Origin: an uncultured virus (IMG/VR IMGVR_UViG_3300029305_001437)
Lineage: Duplodnaviria > Heunggongvirae > Uroviricota > Caudoviricetes
Virus record (IMG/VR): IMGVR_UViG_3300029305_001437
DNA: 37,344 nt
Reading direction: 5' to 3' (one strand)
Position numbers and translations under genes: made by a program. Below the pieces are notes generated by a model. The model was not told the origin of the DNA and made no database searches. It was given only the letters and a program-made list of their open reading frames with translations. Positions within the stretch are counted from its first letter, which is position 1. Each line of letters begins with the position of its first letter. Below, piece by piece: positions 894 through 26,865 of this stretch.

Positions 894-915
894 AAAAGAA
901 AAGGTGGTAGCACAG

Positions 916-1170
916 ATGCCGACAATTTCTCGATTTTATGGACTTATCATTCGCATGAACCTCCGCAGCCGGGAACATAATCCCCCTCATATCCACGCAG
1001 AATACGGGGAATATGAAGCCTTAATCGACCTGCGGGATTTATCGGTGGTCCGGGGCAAACTCCCAAATCGTGCCTTGGAAATGACCCTTGAGTGGACTTC
1101 CCAAAATCAGCAAAAACTGCTTGAAATGTGGGAAACCTCCCAAATCACAAAACTGCCCCCGCTCGTCTGA
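916..1170 (+). CDS. DUF4160-family protein (putative toxin of a DUF4160/DUF2442 TA pair)
   Basis: MPTISRFYGLIIRM...EHNPPHIHAEYGEYEA...W...L..W is the typical DUF4160 pattern; AAGGTGG RBS before ATG 916. Confidence 0.85.
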   Translation: MPTISRFYGLIIRMNLRSREHNPPHIHAEYGEYEALIDLRDLSVVRGKLPNRALEMTLEWTSQNQQKLLEMWETSQITKLPPLV

Positions 1171-1195
1171 GCGGGGCATCCGACAGGAGGAGCTT

Positions 1196-1651
1196 ATGGA
1201 AAACTTTGTCGAATATCCGATCAGGACGCTGACCTTGGTTAAGGACTACGAGGTGATCGCCCACTTCAAGAATGGCGATGTGAAGCGGTATGATTTCCGG
1301 AAGATCATCGACCAGCTGGAACCGCTGAGGATCTTGGCGGAAGACTACGAGCTGTTCCAGAAAATCCATCTGTCTGCCGGCGGATACAGCATCATCTGGA
1401 ACGACGACCTTGACCTCGAAGCTGAGGAGCTGTGGTACGAAGGTGAAGATGTTGACTCCCCGTTCCGGGATCTTATGGCTTTCCGTGATGCGGAAGAAAC
1501 CTGGGGCTTGAAACCGAGTGCCCTCCGGAAGGCTGTTCAGTACAAGCGGTTCACAGTCGGCGAAGATGTGATGCACTTCGGTAAGCAGTGGGTGATAACC
1601 AAGAAGGCTATGGTACGGGAATACGGCCCCGAACCCAGGCAAGCTGAATAA
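1196..1651 (+). CDS. DUF2442-domain protein with C-terminal helix-turn-helix (putative antitoxin/regulator)
   Basis: DYEVIAHFKNGDVKRYDF...GGYSIIWNDDLDLEAEELW is DUF2442-like; the C-terminus (DAEETWGLKPSALRKA...FGKQWVITKKAM.REYG) resembles an HTH; AGGAGG RBS. Confidence 0.8.
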   Translation: MENFVEYPIRTLTLVKDYEVIAHFKNGDVKRYDFRKIIDQLEPLRILAEDYELFQKIHLSAGGYSIIWNDDLDLEAEELWYEGEDVDSPFRDLMAFRDAEETWGLKPSALRKAVQYKRFTVGEDVMHFGKQWVITKKAMVREYGPEPRQAE

Positions 1652-1655
1652 GACG

Positions 1656-1684
1656 AGCGGCTCTCGAAAGAGGGCCGCTTTTTT
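1656..1684 (+). terminator. intrinsic terminator
   Basis: AGCGGCTCTC-GAAA-GAGGGCCGCT followed by a T-run. Confidence 0.85.
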
Positions 1685-1928
1685 ATGCCCAAATGTCCGA
1701 CTCAAGCCAATACCAGAACCCGAAGCAATACCCTACATCATTCGGCACCCGGCAATCAGCTCCATTTGCCAATTTTGCAGACCTGAAAGACGGTGATTAT
1801 GGTCATTTCCTGTCACTGTCACTAAATGACACGATTTCGCACTGAATTGCATTGAGTTGTCATAAATGCTGGTGTATCGTGTATAACAGCAAAAACCGGA
1901 TGACTGTTGGGGGACAGGAAATCCACAG

Positions 1929-1980: not shown

Positions 1981-2619
1981 ATGGCAAAGAGAATTGAGGT
2001 TGTCCAACGCAGAGTTGGTGACCTGAAACTGGACTTCGGCAATCCTCGTAAGATCAAGAAGCAAAAGAAAGAGGATCTCGAACAGTCCCTGAATGACCAC
2101 GGCGACTTTGGTATTATCATTATCAATGAAAAAGACCAGGTCCTTGGTGGCAACCAGCGTGTTATGATCTTCCAGAAGCAGGATCCTGATATGATGGTGT
2201 GGTGTAAGCTGCTGGTCGGCTATACGATTGCCGAGCAGAAGTATGTCAATATCAAGGCGAACAGCCACGCCGGTGAATGGGATCTCGAAGAACTGGGCGA
2301 CTGGACAGCTGACCTGATGAGCAGCTTCAAGCTGGATCTGGAGAAACCCGATAAGCCTCTGGAGGAACGGAGCATCAAGGAGATGGAGCCGATCCACTAT
2401 GAGCAGTATGACTATGTGCTCATTGCTTGCCGTAATGAGCTTGACTATAACGACCTCGTCCGGAAGCTGGGCATCGAAGGCGGCACCGTCAAGGTTGCCA
2501 AGACCCGGCGGATCAAGGGCAGAGCGATCTGGTATGACCAGATGAAGTCCCAGATCATCAGTGCTGAGGAGGTCGCCGCAAGAGAGGCGGAGGAGGCTGG
2601 CGATGATGAAGAAGAATAA
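1981..2619 (+). CDS. ParB/Srx-like N-terminal domain protein (phage DNA-modification-cluster type)
   Basis: GNPRKI...LEQSLNDHG...IIIN...VLGGNQRV...NIKANSHAGEWD matches the ParB-N pattern; GGAGG RBS before ATG 1981. Confidence 0.75.
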   Translation: MAKRIEVVQRRVGDLKLDFGNPRKIKKQKKEDLEQSLNDHGDFGIIIINEKDQVLGGNQRVMIFQKQDPDMMVWCKLLVGYTIAEQKYVNIKANSHAGEWDLEELGDWTADLMSSFKLDLEKPDKPLEERSIKEMEPIHYEQYDYVLIACRNELDYNDLVRKLGIEGGTVKVAKTRRIKGRAIWYDQMKSQIISAEEVAAREAEEAGDDEEE

Positions 2620-3841
2620 TCCCATCAAGTTTGCGTCCCCCGACCTGAGCAAGAAAGAGCTGAACGAGATCCGGAAGGTACTGGATAGCGGTTGGCTCAC
2701 GAATGGCCCGGTCGTCCGGGATTTCGAGCGGAAGATTGCTTCGATGAGCAACTGCCGCAGAGCAGTCGCTTTTGACAGCTGTACCGCAGCGATGGAGATG
2801 ACGCTCCGTGCCTTGGGCATCGGCCCTGGGGATGAAGTCATCACCACACCGTATACATATTCCGCAACGGCGGAAGTCATCCGAAACACGGGAGCCAAGA
2901 TCGTATTCGTCGATCTGGCTCCTAACTCTTTTGAGATGGACTACCACCTGGTTGAAAAGGCGATTACGCCCCGTACCAAGGCAGTCATTCCGGTTGACAT
3001 CGGCGGCAAGCTCTGCAACTACGCAGCACTCCAGCTTGCGATCGAACTGAAGTCCAACATCTTCAAGCCGGCCAATCCGGTGCAGGAGGCGATGGGCAGA
3101 GTTGCTATTGTAGCAGATGCAGCTCACAGCTTCGGTGCAGAACAGGACAGCCACCTTGCCGGCGAACTGGCGGATTTCACCTGCTTCAGTTTCCATGTGC
3201 TGAAATGTATCACCACCGGAGGCGAGGGTGGTGCGGTAGTGTGGAAAGAGATCCACGGTATCGACAACGCCAAGTTCGAGGAAACCCTGAGGCTGCTTGG
3301 CGATCACGGCCAAACATCCCGGGATAAGTCGACCGGTTGGGAGTACGACATCGCCCTGTTCGGCTATAACCACATTATGACGAACATCGACGCCGCAATG
3401 GGCATTGCCCAGTTGGATCGGTTCAAGGAGATCTGCGACAGACGGATGGAGGTAACGCTCCGGTACGATGAGCTGTTCGCCAAGACCGATGTGGCGGAGC
3501 CGATGATCCAGCACTTCGGGTCGAACTACACCAGCTCGATGCACCTGTACCCGATCCGGTTGGCAACACCTGCGTTCCTGACTGAACAGGACAAGGGACA
3601 CGAGTTCTGGAGAAATATGGTGTACCGCCAGCTCCGGGCAGCAGGGATCCCCTGCAATGTTCACTACAAGCCCCTGCCTATGATGACGGCCTACAAGAAC
3701 GCAGGCTTCGACATCGCAGATTACCCCAACGCCTACAAGCAGTTCCGTAGCTTGCTGACGATCCCGTACCACACCTACCTGACTGCAGAACAGCAGGAGT
3801 TCATCGTGGATACCATCGGAAAGGTGGCGATGGGCGTATGA
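2603..3841 (+). CDS. DegT/DnrJ/EryC1/StrS-family PLP-dependent nucleotide-sugar aminotransferase
   Basis: SGWLTNGP..FE, DSCTAA, GPGDEVIT, DAAHSFGA, FSFHVLK (PLP lysine)-ITTGGEGG motifs; AGGAGG RBS. Start is 2603 or 2606. Confidence 0.93.
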   Translation: MMKKNNPIKFASPDLSKKELNEIRKVLDSGWLTNGPVVRDFERKIASMSNCRRAVAFDSCTAAMEMTLRALGIGPGDEVITTPYTYSATAEVIRNTGAKIVFVDLAPNSFEMDYHLVEKAITPRTKAVIPVDIGGKLCNYAALQLAIELKSNIFKPANPVQEAMGRVAIVADAAHSFGAEQDSHLAGELADFTCFSFHVLKCITTGGEGGAVVWKEIHGIDNAKFEETLRLLGDHGQTSRDKSTGWEYDIALFGYNHIMTNIDAAMGIAQLDRFKEICDRRMEVTLRYDELFAKTDVAEPMIQHFGSNYTSSMHLYPIRLATPAFLTEQDKGHEFWRNMVYRQLRAAGIPCNVHYKPLPMMTAYKNAGFDIADYPNAYKQFRSLLTIPYHTYLTAEQQEFIVDTIGKVAMGV

Positions 3842-4815
3842 GTGATACCATCAAGGGTGCGACCATACTGATTACCGGCGGCACCGGTACATTCGGCAAT
3901 GCCTTCCTCGACAAGTGCTTGGAGATGGATGCAGCCGAAGTCCGGATCTTCAGCCGGGATGAGAAGAAACAGTATGATATGGCACAGAGATACCGGGAGC
4001 ACAAGAATGTCAAGTTCTTCCTCGGAGACATCCGGGATAAGCGGACACTTGACCCGGCTATGTACGGCGTTGACTATGTGTTCCACGCCGCAGCTATGAA
4101 GCAGGTTCCCTCCTGCGAACGCTTCCCGATGGAGGCTGTGAAGACCAACATCCAGGGCAGCGAGAACCTCTTGATCTCCGCAGTCCAGCGGCGGGTCAAG
4201 AAGGTTGTTTGCCTGTCTACCGATAAGGCGGTGTATCCCACCTCCGCTATGGGTATGACCAAGGCATATATGGAGAAGTTGGCTCTGCAAAGAGCTGAGG
4301 AGCAGGACCGTACACAGATCTGCATCACCCGGTTTGGCAACCTGGTTGCATCCCGGGGTAGTGCTGTGCCTCTGTTCATTGAGCAGGTGCAGACTGGTAT
4401 GCCGATCACGATTACCCATCCGGATATGACCCGCTTCCTGATGACCGTCAATGAGGCGGTCGATCTGGTAGCCCGTGCGTTCAGCCTGGGTCAGAACGGT
4501 GAGCTCCTCGTCAAGAAGTCCTCTGCCTGTACGACCGGAGATCTGGCGAGTGCGGTATGTAAGTACCTGAACCTGCCTGAGGATTACCCCAAGAAGATCA
4601 TCGGCATCCGCCCCGGCGAGAAAATGCACGAAGCATTGCTGACCGAGGAGGAGGCAGAGCTGGCCACTGTGAAGGGAGACTACATCGTAGTATCCCGGAA
4701 GCGGGACAGCGTGGGTAGGATTGACGCCCAGTACAAGTCCGAGCTTGCACCCCGTATGACGGAGGAGCAGGTATTGAACCTGATCCGCAGTGTGTTCGAG
4801 GGAGGTGTTCACTGA
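3838..4815 (+). CDS. UDP-N-acetylglucosamine 4,6-dehydratase, FnlA/CapE/WbjB-like extended SDR
   Basis: ITGGTGTFG Rossmann motif, FSRDEKKQ, FHAAAMKQVPSCE, LSTDKA, MGMTK (MxxxK in place of YxxxK, as in CapE/FnlA), RFGN, GIRPGEKMHE. Confidence 0.92.
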   Translation: MSDTIKGATILITGGTGTFGNAFLDKCLEMDAAEVRIFSRDEKKQYDMAQRYREHKNVKFFLGDIRDKRTLDPAMYGVDYVFHAAAMKQVPSCERFPMEAVKTNIQGSENLLISAVQRRVKKVVCLSTDKAVYPTSAMGMTKAYMEKLALQRAEEQDRTQICITRFGNLVASRGSAVPLFIEQVQTGMPITITHPDMTRFLMTVNEAVDLVARAFSLGQNGELLVKKSSACTTGDLASAVCKYLNLPEDYPKKIIGIRPGEKMHEALLTEEEAELATVKGDYIVVSRKRDSVGRIDAQYKSELAPRMTEEQVLNLIRSVFEGGVH

Positions 4816-5519
4816 TGCCTAAGAAGATCCTGTTTGTAGTTGCCCATCCGGACGACGAGCTCCTGGGAGCCGGTGCGTTCATCCACGATGCAGCTAAGGC
4901 AGGCCACGAGATTGCCGTGGCGGTGCTGAACACCTGTGACACTACCCGCTATCAGGATGATTTTAAGCGGATCGTCGCTGATATGGTACGGACACACCAC
5001 GAAGTCGGTATTTCGCAGTTGTATCCATTCTGCTATACCGACAGCAACTTCCACAATGCCGACCATCGCCAGATGGTACAGGACATTGAGAAGGTGATGC
5101 GGGAGTTCCAGCCTGATTACATTTTCACCCAGCACCCCGGTGATATTAACACCGATCACTACTGGACGGCAGCATCCTGTATGGAAGCCTTCCGCCTGTG
5201 GCAACGGGGCCGGGAGGAGATGAAGCCGGTCAAGGCTCTCTACCTGATGGAAGTCCAGTCCTCTACCGACTGGGCACTGAACCCGTCGATCAAGAAATTC
5301 GACGCCAATACCTACATCCCGGTAACGGAGGCAGGTGTGGCGGCTAAGATCCGTGCATTGGGACTGTATGAGAATGTCATCCGTCCCGTTCCGCATCCCC
5401 GGAGCGAGGAAGCTCTTTGGGCATTGCCCCGGCTCCGTGGTGCACAGTGCGGTATGCCGTATGCTGAGGCGTTCGAGTGCGTGTTCAGACTGGAGGGGAT
5501 TGTATGGGGGACTTGGTAG
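4815..5519 (+). CDS. PIG-L/LmbE-family N-deacetylase
   Basis: VAHPDDE metal-binding motif, HPGDINTDH, C-terminal R..RGAQCG..YAEAF. Confidence 0.9.
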   Translation: MPKKILFVVAHPDDELLGAGAFIHDAAKAGHEIAVAVLNTCDTTRYQDDFKRIVADMVRTHHEVGISQLYPFCYTDSNFHNADHRQMVQDIEKVMREFQPDYIFTQHPGDINTDHYWTAASCMEAFRLWQRGREEMKPVKALYLMEVQSSTDWALNPSIKKFDANTYIPVTEAGVAAKIRALGLYENVIRPVPHPRSEEALWALPRLRGAQCGMPYAEAFECVFRLEGIVWGTW

Positions 5520-6208
5520 TCCTTGCGTCCCACCAGCCTGACTTTTTCCCGTGGATGGGATATTTCTACAAGATATTCCGGAGTAAGATCTTCGTATTCT
5601 CCGACAATGTCCAGTATTCCAAGTCAGCCCGACACAACTACAACGACATCCTGACTGCCAATGGTCCGCAGCGGTTCACGCTGCCGATCCACTACCATTG
5701 CGTTGACATCGACAAGATGGAGATCGCAGCGGATGAGCGAGTTGTGGAGAAGATGCTGAAGACCTTGAAGTTTGCATACGGAAAGGCAAAGCACTTCGAT
5801 GAGGTGTACCCGGTAATGGAGGAGCTGCTCGGTCGGGCACCGACGGCGAAAAGCCTTGCCGATTTCAACTATATGTGCATATTCGATTTCTGCCATCGGT
5901 TCGGTATGTTCGATGATGGTACTGAGCGGGAGTTCTATCGCTCCTCTTGGCTCAACCTCAAGGAACGCCGGGACGCACGGATCATCGAGATGTGCAAGCT
6001 CCTGAACGCAGATATGTATATCAGCGGGTCAGGGGCGAAAGATTACCACATCGAGGAAGATTACCGGAACAACGGGATCGACCTCGTCTATTCTGACTAT
6101 GAACCGGTGGTTTACGATCAGGTGGGAGGCAAGCAGGTTATCAACCTGTCTGTCATCGACTATGTGATGAACTGCGGGTTTGAGATCCCGAGGGGGTGGA
6201 AAGTATGA
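5504..6208 (+). CDS. wbqC: WbqC-family protein (putative glycyl transferase onto a 4-amino sugar)
   Basis: HQP.F.PW.GYF.KI...DNVQY, Y.KA..F, YISG.G.K.Y, NLSVIDY..N.G match the WbqC-like pattern; GGAGGGG RBS before ATG 5504. Confidence 0.88.
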   Translation: MGDLVVLASHQPDFFPWMGYFYKIFRSKIFVFSDNVQYSKSARHNYNDILTANGPQRFTLPIHYHCVDIDKMEIAADERVVEKMLKTLKFAYGKAKHFDEVYPVMEELLGRAPTAKSLADFNYMCIFDFCHRFGMFDDGTEREFYRSSWLNLKERRDARIIEMCKLLNADMYISGSGAKDYHIEEDYRNNGIDLVYSDYEPVVYDQVGGKQVINLSVIDYVMNCGFEIPRGWKV

Positions 6209-6927
6209 ATGAACCGACATTCGGTATCTATATTCCCAGCTACAAGCGGTTCAAGACCTGTACCGCCCACCAGTTTTTGGAGTATGGTACTTACATCGTA
6301 AGAGAGAGCGAGTACGAGGACTATGTAGCGGCTCTGGCTGACTACCCTCACATCAAGGTGCAGGCGGTCGAAGATAGCCAGATCTGCGGACTGACTGAAG
6401 TAAACCAATGGCTCATTGATAACGCTCCGGAAGATGTGATCGCCATCCTCGACGATGACATCCACCATTTCTACTACCGGATGTTTGAAACGGAGTCGAT
6501 CTCGGATCCTGACCTCATTACCGGTGAACTCGAAAGAGTAGGCCAGCTGATGTGGGATCTCGGCATCGGGTTCGGTGCAACTGACGCAACCATCCGCCCC
6601 TGGAACTACGACTGTGAGTTCTCGTTCAAGGGATGTGCGGGTGCAGTCCGTTGGGTGAACCGGCGGACATTCAAGTCCAAGTGTGTCAAGGAGCTGGAGT
6701 ATAACTACGACATCGACCTTGTCCTTCAGGAGCTGCTGACCAACCGGGTGATCCTGAAACCGAAGTATTTCTGCTCGAAGGGATTGACAGATACCAACGA
6801 AGGCGGAGCATCGGGCAAGAAGCGGGGAGACCAGGTGGCAAGCATCAACCTGATGAAATCCAAATGGGGTAAATACTTCTCATACAATATGAAGACGAAT
6901 GTACCCCACATCAATGTGAAAAGATAG
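6205..6927 (+). CDS. GT-A-fold glycosyltransferase, TAGT/GREB1-like phage family
   Basis: IYIPSYKR N-terminal strand, LDDDI DxD motif, DIDLVLQ, TNEGG and KWG C-terminal motifs, in a ParB/terminase gene context. Confidence 0.75.
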   Translation: MNEPTFGIYIPSYKRFKTCTAHQFLEYGTYIVRESEYEDYVAALADYPHIKVQAVEDSQICGLTEVNQWLIDNAPEDVIAILDDDIHHFYYRMFETESISDPDLITGELERVGQLMWDLGIGFGATDATIRPWNYDCEFSFKGCAGAVRWVNRRTFKSKCVKELEYNYDIDLVLQELLTNRVILKPKYFCSKGLTDTNEGGASGKKRGDQVASINLMKSKWGKYFSYNMKTNVPHINVKR

Positions 6928-7099: not shown

Positions 7100-8047
7100 T
7101 TGGCGTATCAAATGCTCACACGAACCGGTAAGTCTTTTTGGGAGGTAACTTCTGCTATGCAGAACGCCATCCGGAAAGGCGACTACGACATCGCAGGACA
7201 CTGCTTATGGGAGCTGCTGCCTCAGTACACACCGTACCTGAGAAAGCGGCTTCTTGTCATTTCTGCCGAGGACTGCTACGGCATCCTGACGAAAGAGATC
7301 CTGCCCCTGTGTGAATACGGCACGGAGGACAGCCTGACAAAAGCACTGGCTCTGCTTTGTGCAGCCAAGAAGAACCGGGACGCAGACTACTTCGTATGCA
7401 ACCTGATGTATGCAGACGAACCCAGCGGTCTCGATAAGCACACGCTGATGCAGACACTCTGCAAGGCTATCCGGAAGCGGGATATGATCGCAACCGGACG
7501 ATACGCAGCCGAGCTTTTCAAATTGTCCCGGAAGGACTTCTGGAAAGCACTGAATGAAACGATGTCTGTTTTCTACCCGCACCTGGAGAGCGAGTTTGCC
7601 GCACTGAGCAGAGCGAACGACTTTATGACCAAGCCGAACGAGGAGACCATCTTCGTAGCGAAGGCGATTATCCTGATGTGGACACAGAGGGAGAATGGTG
7701 ACGATCTGTTTGCCCTGCCCAATATGGACCTGTGGACTCCGTTCCGTATGGATGAGATCACGGTGCCCAAGCCGGTAGACCAGTGCCCCAGAGTGAACGG
7801 TCTGTTCCCTGACTGGGCGTATAACTGGCACACGACCTACGGCAAGTACAAGCTCGGTCGTGATGCGGTACACGCCATCGAGAATGACCAGCGGTTGCTC
7901 ACGCCCCTGGAAGTCAACCTGTTTGATGACTGCTCCTGGAACCGGGACATCAATGCTTGCCTCTTGAAGCATAACCCCCGGAGATATGAGCTGCCCTTCG
8001 ATGACCGTAAGATCACGGTCGAGCAGAAATATGGAACGCAAGTCTGA
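7100..8047 (+). CDS. RarA/MgsA C-terminal-like helical protein lacking the AAA+ ATPase
   Basis: EVTSAMQNAIRKGD...RLLVISAED.G resembles the MgsA 'ISA..KSIRGSD...RRL...A.EDIG' region; a second copy is TLCKAIRKRD; no Walker A motif; TTG start. Confidence 0.65.
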   Translation: MAYQMLTRTGKSFWEVTSAMQNAIRKGDYDIAGHCLWELLPQYTPYLRKRLLVISAEDCYGILTKEILPLCEYGTEDSLTKALALLCAAKKNRDADYFVCNLMYADEPSGLDKHTLMQTLCKAIRKRDMIATGRYAAELFKLSRKDFWKALNETMSVFYPHLESEFAALSRANDFMTKPNEETIFVAKAIILMWTQRENGDDLFALPNMDLWTPFRMDEITVPKPVDQCPRVNGLFPDWAYNWHTTYGKYKLGRDAVHAIENDQRLLTPLEVNLFDDCSWNRDINACLLKHNPRRYELPFDDRKITVEQKYGTQV

Positions 8048-8349: not shown

Positions 8350-8994
8350 ATGGCCGAAAACGAAACCGAATTGGAGCAGGTTCAAACCGGGGAGCAACCG
8401 GGCGATACTGAGCCTGAAAAAAAGCCAAAGAAATCCTCCAAGAAAAAGGGCGGAAAATCGAAGGGGAAATCCTTCGAGGAGAACAAGATCCAGGACTCCG
8501 AAACCGCCCGTGAGAGGGGGAGAAACGGAGGCTTGAAATCCGGTGAGGTCCGGAAAGCGAAGAAGGATGCAAGAGAGGCTGTTCAGTACATCCTTGCACA
8601 GATGACCAAGAACGCCAAGGTTCGGGAGAACCTCACAGAGCTCGGCATCGAGGAGAATGAGTTTAACAATATGATTGCCCTCCACGCCCGTCTGTTCTCG
8701 ATGGCGATGGGTGGAAATCTGGAAGCATACCTGACGCTGATGCGGATGGGTGGCTATGAACCTGAGGAAACCCGTAAGGAGCGTGAGAGCATTGCTGCGG
8801 ATCGCCGCAGAGAGCTTGAGCTTGACGCCAAGGTCGCAGCCCTTAACCGGGGAGATCCTGCCAGCCTTGCAATGAATATGCAGAACGAGGACGGCGATAA
8901 CGATGTGGTGATCTATATGCCACAGATGGACAGTGAGGAGGACTGCCAACCGAAAGAAGAAGATCCTCCTGCGGCAGAAGGTTCTGCCGAGTAA
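8350..8994 (+). CDS. putative terminase small subunit
   Basis: Directly upstream of TerL; ARERGRNGGLKSGEVRKAK (KGG-like) motif, Lys-rich N-terminus, C-terminal VVIYMP strand; GAGG RBS. Confidence 0.65.
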   Translation: MAENETELEQVQTGEQPGDTEPEKKPKKSSKKKGGKSKGKSFEENKIQDSETARERGRNGGLKSGEVRKAKKDAREAVQYILAQMTKNAKVRENLTELGIEENEFNNMIALHARLFSMAMGGNLEAYLTLMRMGGYEPEETRKERESIAADRRRELELDAKVAALNRGDPASLAMNMQNEDGDNDVVIYMPQMDSEEDCQPKEEDPPAAEGSAE

Positions 8995-9008: not shown

Positions 9009-10411
9009 ATGGCAACTGTTCTTAAACCGCAGAAAGGTCCGCAAGAACAGTTTATGTAGTGGCTACCCCGGCACAGATATGTATCTTCGGAGGTGCAGCA
9101 GGCGGCGGTAAATCGTTCGGCCTGCTGTTATCACCTTTGCGGCATAAGAATGTCAAAGGCTTCGGCTGTACGATATTCCGTCGTAACTTCAACCAGATCT
9201 TCTCGCAGGGCGGTCTTTGGGATGAGTCCCTGAAAATGTACCAAGGCATCCGGGGTGCAGTACCGCAGATGTCCCTGGGCAGGTGGAAGTTCTGCGACAA
9301 GGACGGCAACACAATATCGTCAGTCAAGTTCGCCCACATTGAGCGAGATGAAGAACTTCATAAGTGGCAAGGCTCCCAGATCTGCGAGATCGGCTTCGAC
9401 GAGCTGACCCACTTTAGTGAAAAGGCGTTTTTCTATATGCTGTCCCGTAACCGTTCTACCTGCGGTGTTACCCCGTTTGTTCGGGCAACCTGCAACCCGG
9501 ATGCGGATAGCTGGGTAGCCAAGTTCATCTCGTGGTGGATCAATCAGGAGACCGGATACCCCATCCCTGAGCGGAGCGGTAAGATCCGGTGGTTCATCCG
9601 CCGCAATGAGACCCTGTACTGGGCGAACACGAAAGAGGAGCTTTGGGAGCAGTTCAACCTCGTAACCGAGAGGCAGAAACTGGAGCCCCGGTCTGTCACA
9701 TTCATTATGTCCCAGTTGAAGGACAATCAGGAGTTGCTGAAGGTGAACCCTCAGTACGAGGCGAACCTGATGGCTCTGTCCCTTGTTGAGCGTGAGCGAC
9801 TGCTGAACGGCAACTGGAAGATCCGTGCGGCAAGCGGTCTGTACTTCAAACGGACTCAGCTTGGCGAGATCCTTGAGCGGGTCCCGGAGGATGTCATCCA
9901 ATGGGTACGCTGTTGGGACTTGGCCGCCACAGAAAAGACAGACAAGGGAGACCCGGCATACACCGCCGGCGTACTGATCGGCAAGCGGAAGAACGGACGG
10001 TACATAGTAGCCGATGTTATCAACAGGCAGATGTCCGCCTCCGATGTCCGTCAAACGATCAAGCTCACAGCTCAGGCAGACCGAGCGGCATACAAGCGTG
10101 TCCGTATCCGGTTGCCTAAGGATCCCGGTCAGGCAGGTAAGGAGCAGGCTGAGTCCTACATCAAGTTCCTGTCTGGCTTCGATGTCACGACTGTGGCAGA
10201 AACCGGCAGCAAGGAAGCCCGTGCTGAGCCTATGGCAGCACAGTGGCAGGCAGGCAACTTTGACCTGCTGTACGGTCCGTGGAATGAGGAGTACCTGCTC
10301 CAGCTTGAGAATTTCCCGGACAGCACCTTCAAGGATATGGTCGACGCATCTGCCAACGGCTTTGCGGAGATCGAAACACGCAATGTGTTCAATGTAGCAA
10401 ATCTGGTTTGA
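9009..10411 (+). CDS. terL: terminase large subunit; first 16 codons are separated from the body by a stop/frameshift at 9057-9061
   Basis: Walker A GGAAGGGKS, Walker B IGFDELTHF, RATCNP coupling motif, nuclease motifs WDLA and DMVDA. RBS AAAGGGGG precedes ATG 9009 (MATVLKPQKGPQEQFM*); the body ORF is 9059-10411. Confidence 0.93.
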
Positions 10412-10427
10412 TTAAGAGGTGATACCA

Positions 10428-12569
10428 ATGAACGAAAAGAAACGGAGTCAGGCGGAACGCATCCGTGGCTATGCTCGGCTGATCGAGAAGCAGACCGGCA
10501 AGGCAGTCCGTCCGTTCCGTGAAGACGGCTATATGAATATGGTGACTCGGTATGGCACCTCGAAAGATAGCCACGAACACTACCAGTTCCAGCCTGAGCC
10601 GGCGATACCGGATGAAACCCTCAGTATGCTCTACGAGGGCAACGGCCTGTTCGCCAAGATCATCGACGCACCTGCCGAGGAAGCGTTTAAGCGAGGCTTC
10701 ACTCTGGAAGATGTATCCGACGATGACTTGGAGAACTTCTACCGGGAAGCTCTGGATGAGCTGGACTGGGACGAAACCGGTATGACCGCCCTGAAATGGA
10801 TGCGGCTCTTTGGCGGTTCGATTGTTGTTATGCTGATTAACGACGGCGGCGGACTGGAGGATCCTCTGGACTGGAAGAACATCAAGTCCATTGACGACCT
10901 CCGGGTGTATGACCGTTCCGTTATCCAGCCTGACTACTCCACGATGTTCAGCTATGACCCGAGAAACCCGTTTGATACACGGGGCAGTCGCTTGGGTATG
11001 CCTGAATACTACCATGTCAACAGCCGGTACGGCACATTCACGGTGCACGAGAGTAGATGCCTTGTGTTCCAGAATGGTGTCCTGCCTGAGAACTCCAGCA
11101 ACTCCGTGTATCAGCTTTGGGGTATGCCTGAGTACATCCGCCTGAAGAAGGCACTCCGGGATACGGAGCTGGCTCACAGCAGTGCCCCGAGAATGTTGGA
11201 TCGCTCTGTACAGCCGGTCTACAAGATGAAGGAACTGGCCAACCTGCTTGCCACCGAAGAAGGCGAGAACCTGGTCCTGAAAAGGATGCAGGTCATCGAC
11301 CTTGCCCGTGGACTCCTGAACAGCTTGGTAATTGACAGCGAGGGCGAAGATTACGATTTCAAGTCGTTCCAGTTCAACGGTGTGGCTGAGGTCATCGACA
11401 CCTGCTGTAACTTCCTGTCCGCACTGACGAACATCCCGCAGACGACCCTGTTTGGCAGATCTCCTGCAGGTATGAACTCGACCGGTGAAAGCGACCTGGA
11501 AAACTGGTACAGCTTTGTAGGCCGTATCCAGAAGCGGTCTGTCAAGAGCAACCTCCGCTACCTGCTGTCCGTCATCTTCCAGGCTGGTCTGGCTACCGGC
11601 GAGGTGGATGAGGTGCCGAAGATCAAGATCAAGTTCAACCCGCTGTGGACATTGAGCGACACAGAACAGGCTGACCTGGATCTCAAGAGGGCACAGATCG
11701 AGCAGGCCAAAGCCACCACCCTGCAGACCTACGCTTCTATGGAGGTCATCGACCCGACTGAAATCCGCCGTAAGTTGGCAGATAGCGGCGATCTGGAGAT
11801 CAACACAATCCTGGATGAGTACGATGACGAGGAGGAACTGCTGGCAGCCTATGCCAGTGAAGATCCGGATGCTCCTGCTGTAAAGGGCGGCCCCGGTCAA
11901 ATCCTGAATGAGGAAATGCTGGCAGCACAATCCGGTCAGAAGGTCGAAGGCAAGGTTGCTGGACGCAACATCTTCGAGGAGGGCGAGTTCGCTCAGTATG
12001 GAACCGGTGTTGACATCGAGGCACACGCCACGGATCCCGGTTCTACCGGTAGTGCAGCAGCCAATGCTCCTGCAGCGACCAAGCTCCCACAGGATATGAC
12101 CGCCGAGGAAAAGACCGAAGCTGCTGAGGCAGCTGAGGAGGTACAGCAGGACGAAGCACCGTTCGGTGTGGGCGTTCTGGTGTTCCGGGACGGCAAGATC
12201 CTGTGCGGAAAACGCCACAATGACACCGGGTACGGCTTGATCTGCGGCCCTGGTGGTCACGGCGAGAAAGGGGAGACCCCCGAGCAGGCCGCCTTCCGGG
12301 AGACTGAGGAGGAGTTCGGCATCAGCCCGAAGGAGCTCGTGCCTATTGGAGTAGGACCGTTTGAACCTGAGAGCGGACTCCGGGCTCACATCTTTGTCTG
12401 TACTGACTTTGAAGGGGAGCCTGACTGCTTGGATCTTGAGATGACAGATCCGAAGTTCCGGACACTGGAGGAACTGAAGGATCTGGAAGCATCTCTGTTC
12501 CCGCCCTTCCGGGATAGCCTGGAGATCCTGACCTCCTGCCTCGAAGATATTGCCGAGGATGAGGAGTAA
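10428..12569 (+). CDS. portal protein (DUF1073-like) fused to a C-terminal Nudix hydrolase
   Basis: Follows TerL; LY..NGLFAKIID.PAE, RLFGGS, VHESR, IPQT.LFGRSPAGMNSTGESDLENWY, F.PLW motifs. Nudix box GHGEKGETPEQAAFRETEEEFGI at 12255-12323. Confidence 0.9.
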   Translation: MNEKKRSQAERIRGYARLIEKQTGKAVRPFREDGYMNMVTRYGTSKDSHEHYQFQPEPAIPDETLSMLYEGNGLFAKIIDAPAEEAFKRGFTLEDVSDDDLENFYREALDELDWDETGMTALKWMRLFGGSIVVMLINDGGGLEDPLDWKNIKSIDDLRVYDRSVIQPDYSTMFSYDPRNPFDTRGSRLGMPEYYHVNSRYGTFTVHESRCLVFQNGVLPENSSNSVYQLWGMPEYIRLKKALRDTELAHSSAPRMLDRSVQPVYKMKELANLLATEEGENLVLKRMQVIDLARGLLNSLVIDSEGEDYDFKSFQFNGVAEVIDTCCNFLSALTNIPQTTLFGRSPAGMNSTGESDLENWYSFVGRIQKRSVKSNLRYLLSVIFQAGLATGEVDEVPKIKIKFNPLWTLSDTEQADLDLKRAQIEQAKATTLQTYASMEVIDPTEIRRKLADSGDLEINTILDEYDDEEELLAAYASEDPDAPAVKGGPGQILNEEMLAAQSGQKVEGKVAGRNIFEEGEFAQYGTGVDIEAHATDPGSTGSAAANAPAATKLPQDMTAEEKTEAAEAAEEVQQDEAPFGVGVLVFRDGKILCGKRHNDTGYGLICGPGGHGEKGETPEQAAFRETEEEFGISPKELVPIGVGPFEPESGLRAHIFVCTDFEGEPDCLDLEMTDPKFRTLEELKDLEASLFPPFRDSLEILTSCLEDIAEDEE

Positions 12570-22165: not shown

Positions 22166-24727
22166 TTGACCATTTCTGAGTTTGTCAATAAGGTTGGCTT
22201 TAAGGTAAAGGACGAAGATGTCAAAAAAGTCAACGACTCGGTAAAGGGTATCAAGGACACCGCCACGAAACTTCTCGGAGCAATCGGCATTGGCTTTAGT
22301 CTTGCCGCCGTGAATGGACTCATCGAAGAATTTGGTGCAGTCAACAATGCTATCCGGAACTCCGTCGGAGAGCTGGGTAACATGGAGGAAACCCAGGGTT
22401 TGATCCTGGCTGCAGCGAACGATTGCAGAGGCACCTATTCGGATATGGCGAACACCGTATCCAATTTGGTGAAGTCGAGCTCGGATCTGTTCCCCGTTGA
22501 AGACGCAGCGGAGTACACAAGTGCAGTAACCAAACTGCTGAAATCGGCAGGGCGAAGCGAAGCCACAATAGCAAGCGTTATGGAGGGACTGAATAAGTCG
22601 TTCCAGAAGGGTATCGTAGATACTGAAACGCTGAATAAACTGCTCGAACAGGCACCTGAAGCGGCGAATGTTCTCGCAAAGCACCTCGGTGTGGCGAAGA
22701 CACAGCTGCTCGATATGGCAGCCAACGGGCAGATGAAAGTCGAAGACCTGAAGTACGCATTTCTCGACTCGGCGGATGAGATTAACGCCGCCTTCGGAAA
22801 TGTTGATATGACTATCTCCGACGGACTGCGAAGCATTAGAAATCAGTGGGGTCTGTGGTTGGCACAGACAGACAAAACGCTTGGGATCACCAAGACGCTA
22901 TCGAAGGTAATGGTGTCCGCCTTTAACGGCGTGATCGCCATATTGAACCGAGTGCGAACTGCTGTCGTCTGGCTCTCTGAAAAGCTGGGCGGCACCGAGA
23001 ACCTACTGAAACTGGTTGCCATCGCAGCAGGCTCGATTTTCCTTGCTTTGAATTTCGACAAGATCGTCAATGGCATCAAGATGATAGGCAAAGCCATTGG
23101 CGGCTTGAATTTGAAGATGGTTGCGATCATCGCAGTCATCATTCTTATAGCCCTGCTTGTTGAAGACTTTATCAACTTTATGCAGGGCAACAACTCGCTG
23201 ATGGGATCTCTGCTTGAACAGACGGGTATCGACTGTGAGGCAGTAAGATCCAAGATCACCGAGGTATGGAACTCGATCGTCGGTTTCCTGTCGCAGGTAT
23301 GGGACGGAATTAAGGGAGCAGCCCAGATCACCTGGGGTGCGATCAAGGATTTCTTCAACCGGCACGGCGAAACGATCAAGAAGAACTTTGAGCGTTACTG
23401 GAACAACATCAAAGACTTCCTTGGCACGATCTGGGGTATGATCTCCGACATCATCTCCGGTGTCTTTGGCACTCAGGAAAAGAATGTCGATGGCTCCCAA
23501 AAGTCGATCAGCGAAACGATTGTCGGAGGATGGCAAGCCATACTGGATGCCATTATGCCGATACTCGACGGACTGTTCGCCGCCTGGGATGCCATCTTCA
23601 ATGCACTGATGACGGTAGTGGAATTTGTCCTGAACCTGATAAAGAAGTTCTGGGACAAATGGGGTGCCGACATCGTCAACTTCCTGAAGAAGACCTGGGA
23701 CGCAATCAAGAAGGTCATCGACGGTGCACTGACCATAATCAAAGGCATCGGCAATTTCATCGCAGGCGTATTTTCGGGCGACTGGAAGAAAGCCTGGGAG
23801 GGAATTAAGCAGGTCTTTGAGGGAATTTGGAAAGCTATTCAGGGTGTGATCGAGTCGGTCATCGCCTATGTAGAGCTTGCCGTGAAGTTCTGGGTCGATA
23901 ACATCAAGATGATCTGGAGTGCGATCACCGCTTTCTTCCAGGATCTCTGGAACGGTATCTGCGAGATCTTTGCCGGTATCGGAGAGTGGTTTGCTGGTGT
24001 ATTCCAGGCAGCTTGGGACGGCATCGTCGCCATCTGGAACTCCGTTGTCGGTTGGTTCCAGGGTGTATGGAACGGCATCGTCGGTGTGTTCTCCGCCGTC
24101 GGCTCCTGGTTTGCGGGTATCTTCAACTCTGCGTGGGAAGGCATCAAGAACGCCTTCAGTGCGGTCGGCTCCTTCTTCCAGGGTATTTGGGACACGATCG
24201 TCGGTATGTTCACCAAGATCGGCACCTCGATCGGCGACGGTATCTCCGGAGCCTTCAAGTCTGTCGTGAACGGCGTCATCGGTTTTGCCGCAAAGATCAT
24301 CAATGGTTTCATTGACTCGATCAACTGGGCGATCGGTGTCATTAACAAGATCCCCGGTGTCAACATCAGCAAGCTGTCCCGCATCCAGCTGCAGGGACTT
24401 GCCCAAGGTGGTTACATCGGTGCGAATAAGCCCACTCCTGTTGTCATCGGTGATAACAAGAGCGAAGGTGAGATCGTATCGCCTATCAGTAAGATGCGTG
24501 ACACGATGCTGGACGCCCTGCGGATGTTTGCAACCGCAAAGCGGCCCAGTCCCACTACGCAGATGATGTCCAACAGCACGACCAACCGGAGTGTTGTACA
24601 GAACATCGAGTTCCACAATGAGTTCAATGGCGACAGGGCTATCCAGAAGGAAGCTAAGCAGACTATGGATAGATCTGCACAAGACATCACGGCTACCCTT
24701 GCTCGGGGTATTGCTTTGGCTACATAA
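22166..24727 (+). CDS. tail tape measure protein, 853 aa
   Basis: GAGGTGA RBS and TTG start; tape-measure domain (LLEQAPE...LAKHLGV...MA..GQ), hydrophobic segments and roughly 11-residue Trp/Phe periodic repeats. Confidence 0.92.
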   Translation: MTISEFVNKVGFKVKDEDVKKVNDSVKGIKDTATKLLGAIGIGFSLAAVNGLIEEFGAVNNAIRNSVGELGNMEETQGLILAAANDCRGTYSDMANTVSNLVKSSSDLFPVEDAAEYTSAVTKLLKSAGRSEATIASVMEGLNKSFQKGIVDTETLNKLLEQAPEAANVLAKHLGVAKTQLLDMAANGQMKVEDLKYAFLDSADEINAAFGNVDMTISDGLRSIRNQWGLWLAQTDKTLGITKTLSKVMVSAFNGVIAILNRVRTAVVWLSEKLGGTENLLKLVAIAAGSIFLALNFDKIVNGIKMIGKAIGGLNLKMVAIIAVIILIALLVEDFINFMQGNNSLMGSLLEQTGIDCEAVRSKITEVWNSIVGFLSQVWDGIKGAAQITWGAIKDFFNRHGETIKKNFERYWNNIKDFLGTIWGMISDIISGVFGTQEKNVDGSQKSISETIVGGWQAILDAIMPILDGLFAAWDAIFNALMTVVEFVLNLIKKFWDKWGADIVNFLKKTWDAIKKVIDGALTIIKGIGNFIAGVFSGDWKKAWEGIKQVFEGIWKAIQGVIESVIAYVELAVKFWVDNIKMIWSAITAFFQDLWNGICEIFAGIGEWFAGVFQAAWDGIVAIWNSVVGWFQGVWNGIVGVFSAVGSWFAGIFNSAWEGIKNAFSAVGSFFQGIWDTIVGMFTKIGTSIGDGISGAFKSVVNGVIGFAAKIINGFIDSINWAIGVINKIPGVNISKLSRIQLQGLAQGGYIGANKPTPVVIGDNKSEGEIVSPISKMRDTMLDALRMFATAKRPSPTTQMMSNSTTNRSVVQNIEFHNEFNGDRAIQKEAKQTMDRSAQDITATLARGIALAT

Positions 24728-24741
24728 GGGAGGTCGAGATT

Positions 24742-25332
24742 ATGGCAAAGGTGAAAATTCCTGTTTCCATCAATGGCATTGAGTTCGACGCCCTTATGTC
24801 CGAAGACCGTGGGTTTGAAGCGAGTGTACCGGAGTATTCCGTTGAGGACGGCTTTTCTGTAACCGATGCGATTATCATCGGCTCGGAGAAATTGTCTATG
24901 ACCCTGTTCGTTACGAACACCCCGGTCACTTGGCACAGGCGGCACGGCTCCAGCCCGACCAGAGTGAAAGAGATCTGCGACAAGCTGGAGAAGTTGTTCC
25001 TGGAGGCAATCCCCGTAACCGTTATCACGAACGATGCGGTTTACAAGAGTATGGCTATCGAGAGTATCTCGTTCTCCAAGACGCTTGAGCAGGGATATGC
25101 CAGAGAGATACCGATTTCGTTCAAGAAGATCCGTGTTACCAAGGCACGGACCACGACGATCCCGGACAGCTACGGTAAGAGCGGAGGCACCGGCACATCC
25201 GCCGGCTCCGCCAACACCAGCACCGGCTCCACCGGAGGATCCGGAGGCTCGGGCAATTCCGGAAGTAATGACGGCAAGAGCAAGTCCAGTATCCTCTACG
25301 GCGTGGCATCGTCCATCGGCATCATCAAGTAA
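24742..25332 (+). CDS. baseplate/tube-initiator (Dit-like) protein
   Basis: FDA..SE......EY.VEDG..VTD and V.VIT...VY.SM.I motifs; follows the tape measure gene. Confidence 0.75.
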   Translation: MAKVKIPVSINGIEFDALMSEDRGFEASVPEYSVEDGFSVTDAIIIGSEKLSMTLFVTNTPVTWHRRHGSSPTRVKEICDKLEKLFLEAIPVTVITNDAVYKSMAIESISFSKTLEQGYAREIPISFKKIRVTKARTTTIPDSYGKSGGTGTSAGSANTSTGSTGGSGGSGNSGSNDGKSKSSILYGVASSIGIIK

Positions 25333-25344
25333 AGGGGGATCAGT

Positions 25345-25662
25345 ATGGAGTATGTAATCATTGAAGTCCCCGACCTGAACGACAGTATGTCCCGCATCGT
25401 GCTGAACGGTGTGCCGTACCAGATCAGGTTCTCCTACAATGATACCAAGGACTATTGGAAGTTCAGCCTGTATGACACGCAGAACAACCCGATTGCCCTC
25501 GGTATCAAGATCGTCCCGAATTTCCCGCTGAACATCTTCTACGGAGTGACACAGCTCCCGTCCGGAGTGTTTGCGGCAAAGTCGAAGCTCGACCACATCG
25601 GGCGAAACGACTTTAAGGACGGCAAGGCGGAGTTCATCTTCTGTCCTGCTGACCTGGGGTGA
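25345..25662 (+). CDS. small baseplate (plug-like) protein
   Basis: I.LNG..Y..RF.YN....W..SLYD...P...GIKIV motif; synteny. Confidence 0.7.
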   Translation: MEYVIIEVPDLNDSMSRIVLNGVPYQIRFSYNDTKDYWKFSLYDTQNNPIALGIKIVPNFPLNIFYGVTQLPSGVFAAKSKLDHIGRNDFKDGKAEFIFCPADLG

Positions 25663-25683
25663 TCCTGTCCGTAATCTGCGGCG

Positions 25684-25914
25684 AAAATCCACAGACATTC
25701 CTACGGACATTCCACAGACAGACCGGAAACGCACATCGTATGCAGACACAGCTCTGCTGCGGTGTGTGATTTTCGGCTGCTGTCTGTCCTTTTCTGTTTG
25801 TCCTGCGGAAATTCCACGGACAGTCCTGCGGACATTCCACGGAAATTCCAGACATAACCGTAACCGTAACCGTAACCGTAACCTATACCATAACCGAACC
25901 TTAACAGGTATAGG
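25684..25914. repeat. iteron-like 11-12 bp direct repeats plus (TAACCG)n hexamer array, ori-like
   Basis: Two clusters of (G/A)GA(C/A)ATTCC(A/T)C-like units (about 25684-25722 and 25800-25854); four perfect TAACCG copies at 25855-25878 plus degenerate ones; CCTATACC/GGTATAGG inverted repeat at 25882-25914. Confidence 0.8.
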
Positions 25915-25998
25915 GATATATGTGCATTTGGCAATGCACGAGTGTTTTTGAATTTGAGAGTAACCGATTGTATCGGATGATATACAAGGAGGTGCCTT

Positions 25999-26865
25999 AT
26001 GGCAGGGTATGATAACTTCAATCGAGAATACCGACTTGCTGCAGGCAAGGCAGGGAAGAAGGGCTTTGAGATCGGGCATAAGAGTCCGCAACAGCCTGTT
26101 CCTCTGCATATCAACTTCTCGTTGCAGAAGGCAGACCTCCAGACCCCCAACACCGGAAAGGTGACGATATGGAACCTGAATGAGGCTCACCGTGAGCTGC
26201 TCAATGAGGAAGACTGCGTTCTGTCCCTCCGGGCAGGATACGGCGACCATATCTCCCTGATCTTCGCCGGTGTGGTCAGCTTTGCCACGACATCGAACGA
26301 CGGAGCTGACAGAAAGACGGAGATCGAAGTGGTTGACAGCCTAATTGAGATCCGTGATACCTACATCACGGTGTCCTACAACGGCAAGGTCAACTGGAAG
26401 CGGATATTCGACGATGTGGCGGCACAGATGGGTGTCGCCGTTTCTTATTCGTATAACGCCAGCAAGTATTTCAAGAACATCAACAACGGCTTCTCGTTTG
26501 TTGGCAAGGCGAGGGATGTGCTGACCCGTGGCTGTAACTGCTGCGGATTGGTGTGGAGCATCCAGAACGGCGTCCTGCAGGTCAAGAGGCCGAACGATGT
26601 TATGTCCAAGGAAGTATATGTGCTGTCCCCGGACAGCGGCCTGATCGGTATCCCGGCGAGAGTGGTCGTCGAGGAGGACGATGCGGGTGGTAAGACCTTG
26701 GGCTGGGATGTGGAGTATTTCCTGAACGGTGCCATCAACATTGACGACTATGTCAAGCTGGAGACCAAGACTGTCTCCGGCTACTTCCGGGTGTACTCAG
26801 TCGAAATGCAGGGAGATAACCTGTCTGGCGACTGGCTGTGCAAAGCTCGGCTTTTGGAGGTGTGA
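25999..26865 (+). CDS. baseplate hub protein
   Basis: N.GKVTIWNL, L.AGY, WSIQNG.LQ, LSPDSGLIG.P motifs; AAGGAGG RBS. Confidence 0.8.
   Translation: MAGYDNFNREYRLAAGKAGKKGFEIGHKSPQQPVPLHINFSLQKADLQTPNTGKVTIWNLNEAHRELLNEEDCVLSLRAGYGDHISLIFAGVVSFATTSNDGADRKTEIEVVDSLIEIRDTYITVSYNGKVNWKRIFDDVAAQMGVAVSYSYNASKYFKNINNGFSFVGKARDVLTRGCNCCGLVWSIQNGVLQVKRPNDVMSKEVYVLSPDSGLIGIPARVVVEEDDAGGKTLGWDVEYFLNGAINIDDYVKLETKTVSGYFRVYSVEMQGDNLSGDWLCKARLLEV

Follow-up and report, generated by a model that had tools for sequence, protein, structure and literature searches.

The window analysed here, a viral metagenome contig of 37,344 nucleotides (nt; IMGVR_UViG_3300029305_001437), carries a cassette of six overlapping genes on its + strand, at positions 1981-6927. 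They encode a ParB-like protein, a DegT/PseC-like sugar aminotransferase, a short-form 4,6-dehydratase, a PIG-L/LmbE-family de-N-acetylase, a WbqC-family protein, and a glycosyltransferase (GT) related to the TAGT family, and they precede the terminase genes of the phage (Table 1). The original prediction, which was made from the letters of the window, proposed that they form a new system for the hypermodification of phage DNA. The six genes that it described are real. Adjacent genes overlap by 1 to 17 nt and use starts that bear ribosome-binding sites (RBS), which is compatible with translational coupling. However, the cassette as first drawn ends too early: the gene that follows, here called g7100, belongs to the invariant core.

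Across relatives, the part that stays constant is a triad located ahead of the terminase genes, namely the ParB-like protein, the TAGT-type GT, and g7100; the tailoring genes are freely swapped and hypervariable. In 29 viral loci that were collected by their GT, the ParB gene lies upstream in 25 (the other four are cut at the left end), and g7100 lies downstream in 28 (the remaining one is cut at the right end). A survey anchored on ParB, which covered the best 80 of 169 viral loci, found the GT in 77 and g7100 in 72; the three loci without the GT have 1.2 kb or less of sequence after ParB, and the eight without g7100 are cut within 3.8 kb. PIG-L and WbqC were both present in 39 of these 80 loci and both absent from 36, although PIG-L was sought by tblastn with the window protein, so distant copies may have been missed. 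Among 20 prophage loci, ParB, the GT, and WbqC are present in all 20, PIG-L in 19, and g7100 in 18, while the dehydratase and aminotransferase occur together in just 7; 12 of the 20 contain PIG-L and WbqC with neither of the other two enzymes. As the original prediction had it, the ParB gene stands beside the terminase, and this position is conserved in the 29 viral and 20 prophage loci. The gene order ParB-DegT-dehydratase-PIG-L-WbqC-GT-g7100-TerS-TerL is kept, at protein identities of ~50% to 93%.

The triad extends to more distant phages. In a set reached through a g7100 relative, ParB, a TAGT, and a short g7100 abut and are followed by an epimerase, TerS, and a TerL of the Terminase_3 type. 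Against the full TAGT model (PF20691; cut-off of 27.5), three GTs of this set score 58 to 66.3 bits, and the one from a fourth locus scores 37.6 bits. In Microbacterium phage Paschalis, gp83 is a ParB, gp84 a GT, gp85 a UDP-glucose dehydrogenase, and gp86, labeled "AAA-ATPase," is g7100-like (E = 1.7e-59 with a profile from this analysis). Microbacterium phage Quhwah is a carrier of the same combination of genes. The short g7100 matches 56 Microbacterium and 5 Arthrobacter phage records. A GT-B enzyme (Glycos_transf_1) accompanies PIG-L, WbqC, and ParB_N in Vibrio phage VH2_2019 and Arthrobacter phage DanielleIgnace, whose g7100-like matches are weak (~21 bits) but have the SAEDC and HT-x-x-G motifs.

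Some loci depart from the usual layout. In the streptococcal prophage Javan291 (Streptococcus phage; L168, 14807-16602), a ParB-like protein (annotated as "DNA modification methylase") and a TAGT-like GT (E = 4.5e-19 with a profile from this analysis) lie directly before TerL, and the g7100 profile finds no match there; the system may exist here as a pair of genes. One locus has an HNH/NUMOD4 homing endonuclease inserted between the GT and g7100 (L003:10892-11446), and another has a TerL of 993 amino acids (aa) with Hint/intein-type domains (L164:8943-11924). In L019/L089 (IMGVR_UViG_3300021254_000221), DegT, PIG-L, WbqC, and the GT are kept and there is no tblastn match to the dehydratase; since DegT is at 987 and PIG-L at 2270, which leaves no room for a dehydratase, that gene has apparently been deleted.

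Table 1. Features of the window, with positions counted from its first letter
Feature	Position	Strand	Basis or remarks
DUF4160 protein	904-1170		overlaps next gene
DUF2442 + HTH_59 (helix-turn-helix) protein	1088-1651		overlaps previous gene
Terminator-like GC-rich hairpin and T run	~1653-1690	+	read from sequence; closes the DUF4160/DUF2442-HTH pair
ParB-like protein, 212 aa	1981-2619	+	ATG with GGAGG RBS; first gene of late operon; PHROGs matches
DegT/PseC-like pyridoxal phosphate (PLP)-dependent sugar aminotransferase	2603/2606-3841	+	PF01041, 2.2e-86
Short-form UDP-HexNAc 4,6-dehydratase, FnlA/PseB/CapE type (Polysacc_synt_2)	3838-4815	+	PF02719, 2e-97
PIG-L/LmbE-family de-N-acetylase	4815-5519	+	PF02585, 9.4e-19; phrog_11796, 7e-26
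WbqC-family protein	5504-6208	+	PF08889, 5.4e-54
Soluble GT-A glycosyltransferase, TAGT family, DDD motif, 240 aa	6205-6927	+	PF20691, 19.4 bits; phrog_842, 6e-9
g7100: two tandem MgsA_C-like helical domains and C-terminal domain	7100-8047	+	phrog_16866, 1.4e-24
Probable TerS, by position only (directly upstream of TerL)	8350-8994	+	phrog_2412 (unknown function), 2.7e-11
TerL	9059-10411	+	PF03237, 2.3e-21; PF17289, 2.2e-14; phrog_979, 1.5e-147
Portal with C-terminal NUDIX hydrolase domain	10428-12569	+	PF06381, 9.8e-76; PF00293, 2.5e-15
Tail-fibre gene	29908-31062
2,059-aa open reading frame (ORF)	31075-37254		phrog_14959 (unknown function), 1.5e-94

Proteins of the core and of the tailoring arm

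The transferase, a soluble GT-A enzyme, belongs at the margin of the TAGT family and is not an ordinary GT2 enzyme. All 32 of the relatives that we aligned match TAGT (PF20691) at E ≤ 0.01 (best 1.2e-12), and many homologues bear a precomputed PF20691 label. The original prediction had raised the concern that this protein might group with ordinary GT2 enzymes of the cell wall; none of the 32 family members matches a GT2 model. The AlphaFold2 (AF2) model has a GT-A fold (predicted local distance difference test [pLDDT] of 88.2 and predicted template modeling score [pTM] of 0.86), and a Foldseek search with it gave 299 GT-A-type matches at E ≤ 0.001. D86, D87, and D88, which form the DDD motif and were examined as the DxD site, are invariant or nearly so. 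The GT is also the most conserved of the 30 late genes that could be matched to a near-complete relative, record G003: it is 86% identical, as compared to 82% for ParB and for the tail tube, 79% for TerL, 71% for the major capsid protein, 60% for the portal, 53% for the sheath, and 62-76% for the sugar-making enzymes. Such high conservation is compatible with an invariant acceptor. Sequence and profile searches of the PDB found no relative of the GT, the ParB-like protein, or WbqC, and no record in the cultured-phage collection matched the window's cassette (by nucleotide or protein search) or its GT (at the level of BLAST).

The ParB-like protein has no match in Pfam or NCBIfam, and its assignment comes from PHROGs alone: phrog_620 (ParB-like, 6.4e-15) and phrog_498 (5.1e-17), which match within residues 44-177 of the long ORF. 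In an alignment of 13 orthologues, the FGNPRK and GGNQR motifs of the N-terminal ParB/Srx-type domain are invariant and the C-terminal domain is conserved; the protein also has an acidic tail. The orthologues are 50-85% identical and are linked to a GT in every case, apart from loci that are cut by the end of the contig. In 5mYOX clusters, the short ParBs are described as having a nucleotide-binding domain at the N terminus together with a C-terminal domain, and no DNA-binding helix-turn-helix domain.

The AF2 model of g7100 is all-helical (pLDDT of 95.5). Its first domain resembles the C-terminal domain of AAA+ proteins of the MgsA/RarA type when compared with VIA-align (8g28_B, Z = 8.2, root-mean-square deviation [rmsd] of 1.5 Å over 93 aa; E. 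coli MgsA, 3pvs_A, Z = 7.0), as does a second copy at residues 111-197 (2r9g_A, Z = 6.4), although Z scores below ~13 are not decisive for helical folds. PF12002 (MgsA_C) matches 5 of 50 relatives of g7100 (best 1.8e-5); the window protein itself has no Pfam match. The C-terminal domain carries a conserved P-x-(Y/W)-x-x-x-x-H-T-x-x-G-K motif, in which H-T-x-x-G is nearly invariant. The family is large: a profile of g7100 matched 1,376 clusters at E ≤ 0.001 in a library of 1.84 billion proteins. A search for loci with a single protein from the g7100 search (P0250) returned none, and a predicted complex of the GT, g7100, and ParB scored 0.12 against a mark of 0.32, which speaks neither for nor against binding. 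We also considered whether g7100 might be a missing dioxygenase. This was ruled out: the protein is all-helical instead of a jelly roll and has a single nearly invariant histidine. Its similarity to helical iron oxygenases (7y3w_A and 8z4q_A, Z = 6.0-6.6, rmsd of 4.5-4.8 Å) is too weak for a helical protein.

The dehydratase and aminotransferase are assigned by sequence to families that turn UDP-N-acetylglucosamine (UDP-GlcNAc) into a UDP-4-amino-4,6-dideoxy-N-acetylhexosamine (HexNAc). The best NCBIfam models for the dehydratase are FnlA (343.4 bits; cut-off of 730) and PseB (283.9 bits; cut-off of 407.75), and the aminotransferase scores 277.5 bits against PseC (TIGR03588; cut-off of 423.5). 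These scores are under the equivalog cut-offs and do not fix the stereochemistry. The nearest NCBIfam model for PIG-L is BshB1, with 40.9 bits as compared to an equivalog cut-off of 182.5. WbqC scores 183.8 bits against PF08889, above the gathering cut-off of 21.3; a search of the ESM Atlas returned the WbqC family itself only (and, for g7100, unnamed viral clusters). We propose that WbqC may acylate a sugar amine. Overall, the earlier view that a soluble nucleotide-sugar pathway would feed a TAGT-like GT-A transferase agrees with the Pfam families, the TAGT matches of the relatives, and the predicted fold. The "complete glycyl-amino-deoxysugar pathway" was an interpretation of these genes and not something observed. 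The proposed 4-N-glycyl product and order of steps are not supported by the 12 prophage loci that have PIG-L and WbqC without the dehydratase and aminotransferase, which point instead to the 2-amine and to a step after transfer. Also, judging from titles and the openings of abstracts, we found no literature that links WbqC to glycine or that describes an activity for WbqC.

In relatives, other enzymes take the place of these genes or join them. An ATP-grasp ligase (PylC-like) occupies the position of WbqC in L023 and L026, and an ATP-grasp ligase occurs together with a PLP decarboxylase of the Orn/DAP type in L106, L132, L136, L142, and L143. Between ParB and the GT, L029 has a FemAB/GNAT-like enzyme, and L027, L028, and L117 have PglD-like acetyltransferases. 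Other variable middle genes encode UDP-galactopyranose mutase, UDP-glucose dehydrogenase, a Mur ligase, a methyltransferase, or a DegT-hexapeptide fusion. The ATP-grasp, Mur ligase, and FemAB-like enzymes all form amides on amines. In L015, WbqC and the GT are separated by an inserted gene for a DUF1599 protein ("nucleotide modification associated domain 1"). ThyX is encoded just upstream in L023, L027, and L117 and not in the phage of the window.

The phage and its neighboring genes

Another record, G002, is 100% identical over the first 6,423 bases of the window and continues for 62 kb upstream of it, which gives the phage a minimum length of 99.3 kb. It is a temperate myovirus of gut Clostridia, of ~99 kb. 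The upstream 62 kb encode a large serine integrase, a CI-type repressor, DnaD-like and DnaC-like loaders, a single-stranded DNA-binding protein (SSB), an exonuclease, and an ArpU-like DUF1492 protein, and in the window a complete myovirus module for head, neck, sheath, tube, and baseplate lies 3' of the portal gene. Relatives of the GT are found in prophages within contigs of metagenome-assembled genomes that are named Lawsonibacter (91% identity), Oscillospiraceae, Acutalibacteraceae, Lachnospiraceae, Roseburia, and Acetatifactor. Assembled contigs from sequencing runs of animal gut or faeces contain DNA that is almost identical: 20 of the 24 listed runs, in 15 studies, carry the stretch in whole or in part.

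Several other genes of this phage deserve mention. G002 encodes a C5 DNA methyltransferase of 638 aa (G002 24442-26358, or L044:5442-7358), a reverse transcriptase (L043:1367-2608), a MazF/PemK-like protein (L044:7767-8258), and a GIY-YIG protein, and ~40 kb of its upstream region (L043-L045) is nearly devoid of recognizable genes. In the window, a terminator closes the small module of the overlapping DUF4160 and DUF2442-HTH_59 genes, and a gap of ~290 nt separates its hairpin from the cassette. With its ORF called from 10419, the portal protein has the NUDIX domain at residues ~583-687, and the fusion is kept in relatives. In 27 of 33 loci with a portal match, tblastn matches extend beyond window residue 700 and cover the NUDIX part (several of the 33 are the same contigs, and in a few the match is split in two pieces); in the other 6 (L001, L002, L003, L018, L025, and one more) the match stops earlier. 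A hydrolase of nucleotide diphosphates at the channel through which DNA enters and exits is unusual, and it could target nucleotide sugars or host signaling nucleotides. The ORF of 2,059 aa follows the tail-fibre genes, and G003 has no tblastn match to it or to the fibre gene before it; this region probably forms the end of the tail module that varies with host range.

Possible targets of the glycosylation

We think there is an even chance that the cassette serves as the sugar-donor and tailoring arm of a system that is expressed late and glycosylates DNA after replication. In this mechanism, the dehydratase and aminotransferase would convert UDP-GlcNAc to UDP-4-amino-4,6-dideoxy-HexNAc, and the GT would move a HexNAc-type sugar onto phage DNA. 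PIG-L would then strip the 2-N-acetyl group on the polymer, and WbqC (or the ATP-grasp ligase, in some relatives) would add an acyl group, probably that of an amino acid, to the 2-amine so freed. With the 4-amine left free, the adduct would be bulky and cationic. We would assign PIG-L and WbqC to steps that follow transfer and take place at N2 because the pair occurs without the 4-amino branch in 12 of the 20 prophage loci and because characterized PIG-L enzymes (MshB, BshB, and PIG-L) act on GlcNAc glycosides. ParB may help an enzyme to act on double-stranded DNA, as it does for some phage thymine dioxygenases, and g7100 may tie the enzyme to DNA or ready the acceptor. The purpose would be escape from restriction and other nucleic-acid defenses, with the diversity of sugars reflecting an arms race.

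Several observations point to DNA as the target. The TAGT family, to which the GT belongs, includes the T6 enzyme, which adds a second glucose to glucosyl-5-hydroxymethylcytosine (glucosyl-hmC) in DNA and is described as a TAGT in passages of PMC13390438. The linkage to ParB is obligatory, and the third partner has an MgsA_C-like fold that is associated with DNA; passages of O'Toole et al. (PMC13229309) report that ParB activates phage T-dioxygenases on double-stranded DNA and that the commonest neighbors of 5mYOX are GTs (31%), ParBs (27%), and terminases (19%). The position ahead of the terminase holds across unrelated types of terminase, a DUF1599 gene lies inside the cassette of L015, and no structural protein is as well conserved as the GT in the comparison with G003. 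Finally, the tailoring chemistry would yield amines, which resembles known cationic base modifications.

Other results weigh against this reading. The match of the window's GT itself to TAGT (19.4 bits, E = 0.0011) covers only residues 11-96 and lies below the gathering cut-off of 27.5, and the neighbors of this GT by fold are generic GT-A enzymes, which are uninformative about the acceptor. WbqC, for which we propose acylation, has no known activity. The original prediction had seen no TET/JBP enzyme or hydroxymethylase in the window, and the upstream 62 kb agree: neither was found among their 101 ORFs. TET/JBP was also absent from our scan of the window and from the neighbors in relatives (0 of 34, 0 of 35, and 0 of 42). 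TET_JBP (PF12851) was found in none of five related records, but this search is unvalidated, as its control was silent in all 14 control genomes. PHROGs named no base-priming enzyme, including the ThyS type, among 56 further upstream ORFs. Pfam may have missed divergent 5mYOX proteins; according to passages of PMC13229309, thousands lack the annotation. GT contigs without 5mYOX or ThyS are considered less obviously related to DNA in the part of 10.1101/2023.12.21.572611 that treats them. Also, no DNA polymerase was found among the genes of the upstream 62 kb. This makes a pre-replicative route unlikely.

The cassette might instead glycosylate a protein of the capsid, tail, or portal, or one that takes part in packaging or is bound to DNA, for shielding or for adhesion in the gut, with ParB and g7100 as a packaging module. 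Expression with the structural genes, in the late operon, would suit this role, as would the absence of any base-priming enzyme from the scans; hypervariable glycans are also typical of surface structures, and the virions of mycobacteriophages are known to be glycosylated. Furthermore, GREB1, a relative of TAGT, is a protein O-GlcNAc transferase (as described in passages of PMC7968844), which counts against DNA and in favor of a protein. We nevertheless consider a protein target to be unlikely: the GT outconserves the candidate substrates (the major capsid protein, portal, and sheath), the genes of the triad remain together in phages whose terminases and structural modules are unrelated, both ParB and MgsA_C are families associated with DNA, and DUF1599 lies inside one of the cassettes. 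We give almost no credence to the idea that a piece of a host O-antigen or capsule locus was captured recently and has no function in the phage; recent capture from a host capsule locus was named in the original prediction as a way that it could fail. DegT, Polysacc_synt_2, and WbqC are indeed typical of O-antigen loci. However, the same order of genes is kept beside TerS and TerL at ~50-93% protein identity in 29 viral and 20 prophage loci, and therefore the cassette is not a recent capture. The GT matches no GT2 model, the GC content is level throughout the region, and the scan of the window found no Pfam domain of a flippase, polymerase, or initiating transferase. In all ten proteins from ParB to the portal, the maximum hydrophobicity of any 19-residue window (Kyte-Doolittle) is at most 1.45, so no membrane protein, flippase, or polymerase is seen among them.

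It is also improbable, in our judgment, that the cassette makes a soluble small molecule, along the lines of bacillithiol or mycothiol, or alters a precursor of the host envelope, with nothing added to DNA or the virion. The combination of a GT, PIG-L, and a putative ligase does parallel BshA, BshB, and BshC, the GT-B enzymes of the Vibrio and Arthrobacter phages are like BshA and MshA, PIG-L is nearest to BshB1, and the ParB fold is shared with sulfiredoxin. However, PIG-L falls short of the BshB1 cut-off, and the triad works without this logic in the 36 of 80 ParB loci that lack both PIG-L and WbqC. In addition, no membrane or export protein is encoded, the cassette heads the packaging operon rather than sitting where genes for lysogenic conversion do, and TAGT has a known member that acts on DNA. 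Overall, about half of our confidence goes to DNA as the target, a minor share to a protein, and a smaller one to a small molecule or envelope precursor; the rest is unassigned. There is a broader form of the DNA reading that we find possible but lean against. In this form, the triad would be a widespread phage machine that glycosylates DNA without TET/JBP or a hydroxymethylase, either because the sugar goes onto a canonical base or the backbone or because the MgsA_C-like protein prepares the site through hitherto undescribed chemistry. The swappable genes would then produce cationic aminoacyl or polyamine adducts, and these would form a new class of DNA modification in phages of the gut, soil, and sea.

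Relation to known systems

The system shares its syntax with the 5mYOX-ParB-GT clusters that are described in passages of Burke et al. 2021 (PMC8256090), 10.1101/2023.12.21.572611, and O'Toole et al. 2026 (PMC13229309): a TAGT-type GT-A enzyme, a short ParB-like protein, and sugar-modifying genes occur by the terminase in metagenomic phages from the same databases, and our phage encodes a C5-methyltransferase elsewhere in its genome. We have not filed it as a member, since the first enzyme was not found: no 5mYOX, ThyS, or other base-priming enzyme turned up here. It also differs in having an invariant MgsA_C-like partner, which the passages on 5mYOX clusters do not mention, and a dedicated amino-sugar route with PIG-L and WbqC, in contrast to the use of plain UDP-Glc or UDP-GlcNAc from the host. 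The beta-glucosyl-HMC-alpha-glucosyltransferase of T6 is a relative at the level of hidden Markov models (phrog_842 matches the N-terminal 100 residues of the GT at 6e-9). That enzyme acts on DNA, where it adds glucose to a sugar that is already on hmC, and this hmC is made before replication.

The first two steps of the pseudaminic acid pathway (PseB and PseC) are the best or near-best NCBIfam matches of the sugar-making enzymes, under the equivalog cut-offs; the cassette proteins contain no PseH, PseG, PseI, or PseF domains. Mycothiol and bacillithiol are made by a GT, a deacetylase, and a ligase in turn (MshA/B/C and BshA/B/C), and the cassette follows the same logic of GlcNAc transfer, deacetylation by PIG-L, and ligation of an amino acid. 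Here, however, the ligase would be WbqC or an ATP-grasp enzyme instead of BshC or MshC, PIG-L is far under the BshB1 cut-off, and the genes are late phage genes that are tied to ParB. Thymidine hypermodification, as reportedly found by Lee et al. in 2018 and 2022, appends an amino acid to DNA and then decarboxylates it. The ATP-grasp ligase and Orn/DAP-type decarboxylase of some relatives would use the same append-then-decarboxylate logic and give cationic groups. However, thymidine hypermodification starts from 5-hydroxymethyldeoxyuridine (5-hmdU) and uses a kinase and aGPT-Pplase/AADT, none of which was seen in the cassette and its relatives. To our knowledge, known phage DNA glycosylation always begins from a hydroxylated or hydroxymethylated pyrimidine. 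An enzyme of the polysaccharide-deacetylase type has been described for Carin-5, in a different block of T-hypermodification genes (in passages of PMC12686479).

In our searches of the literature, we found no description of the triad of ParB, TAGT, and an MgsA_C-like protein, nor of phages with a tailoring arm of PIG-L and WbqC, and nothing of relevance on a phage DNA pathway with PIG-L, LmbE, or ATP-grasp enzymes. According to passages of 10.1101/2023.12.21.572611, ~65% of ~25,000 phage GT contigs are of an unexplained kind, without 5mYOX or ThyS. The triad gives at least part of this class a defined anatomy and a third partner. Cultured phages carry versions of it as well, namely those of the 56 Microbacterium and 5 Arthrobacter records together with DanielleIgnace and VH2_2019. 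Should DNA be the target, the system would involve a new acceptor chemistry and a family of cationic aminoacyl-sugar adducts, and it would help to explain the odd behavior of some gut phage DNA in sequencing and in restriction digests.

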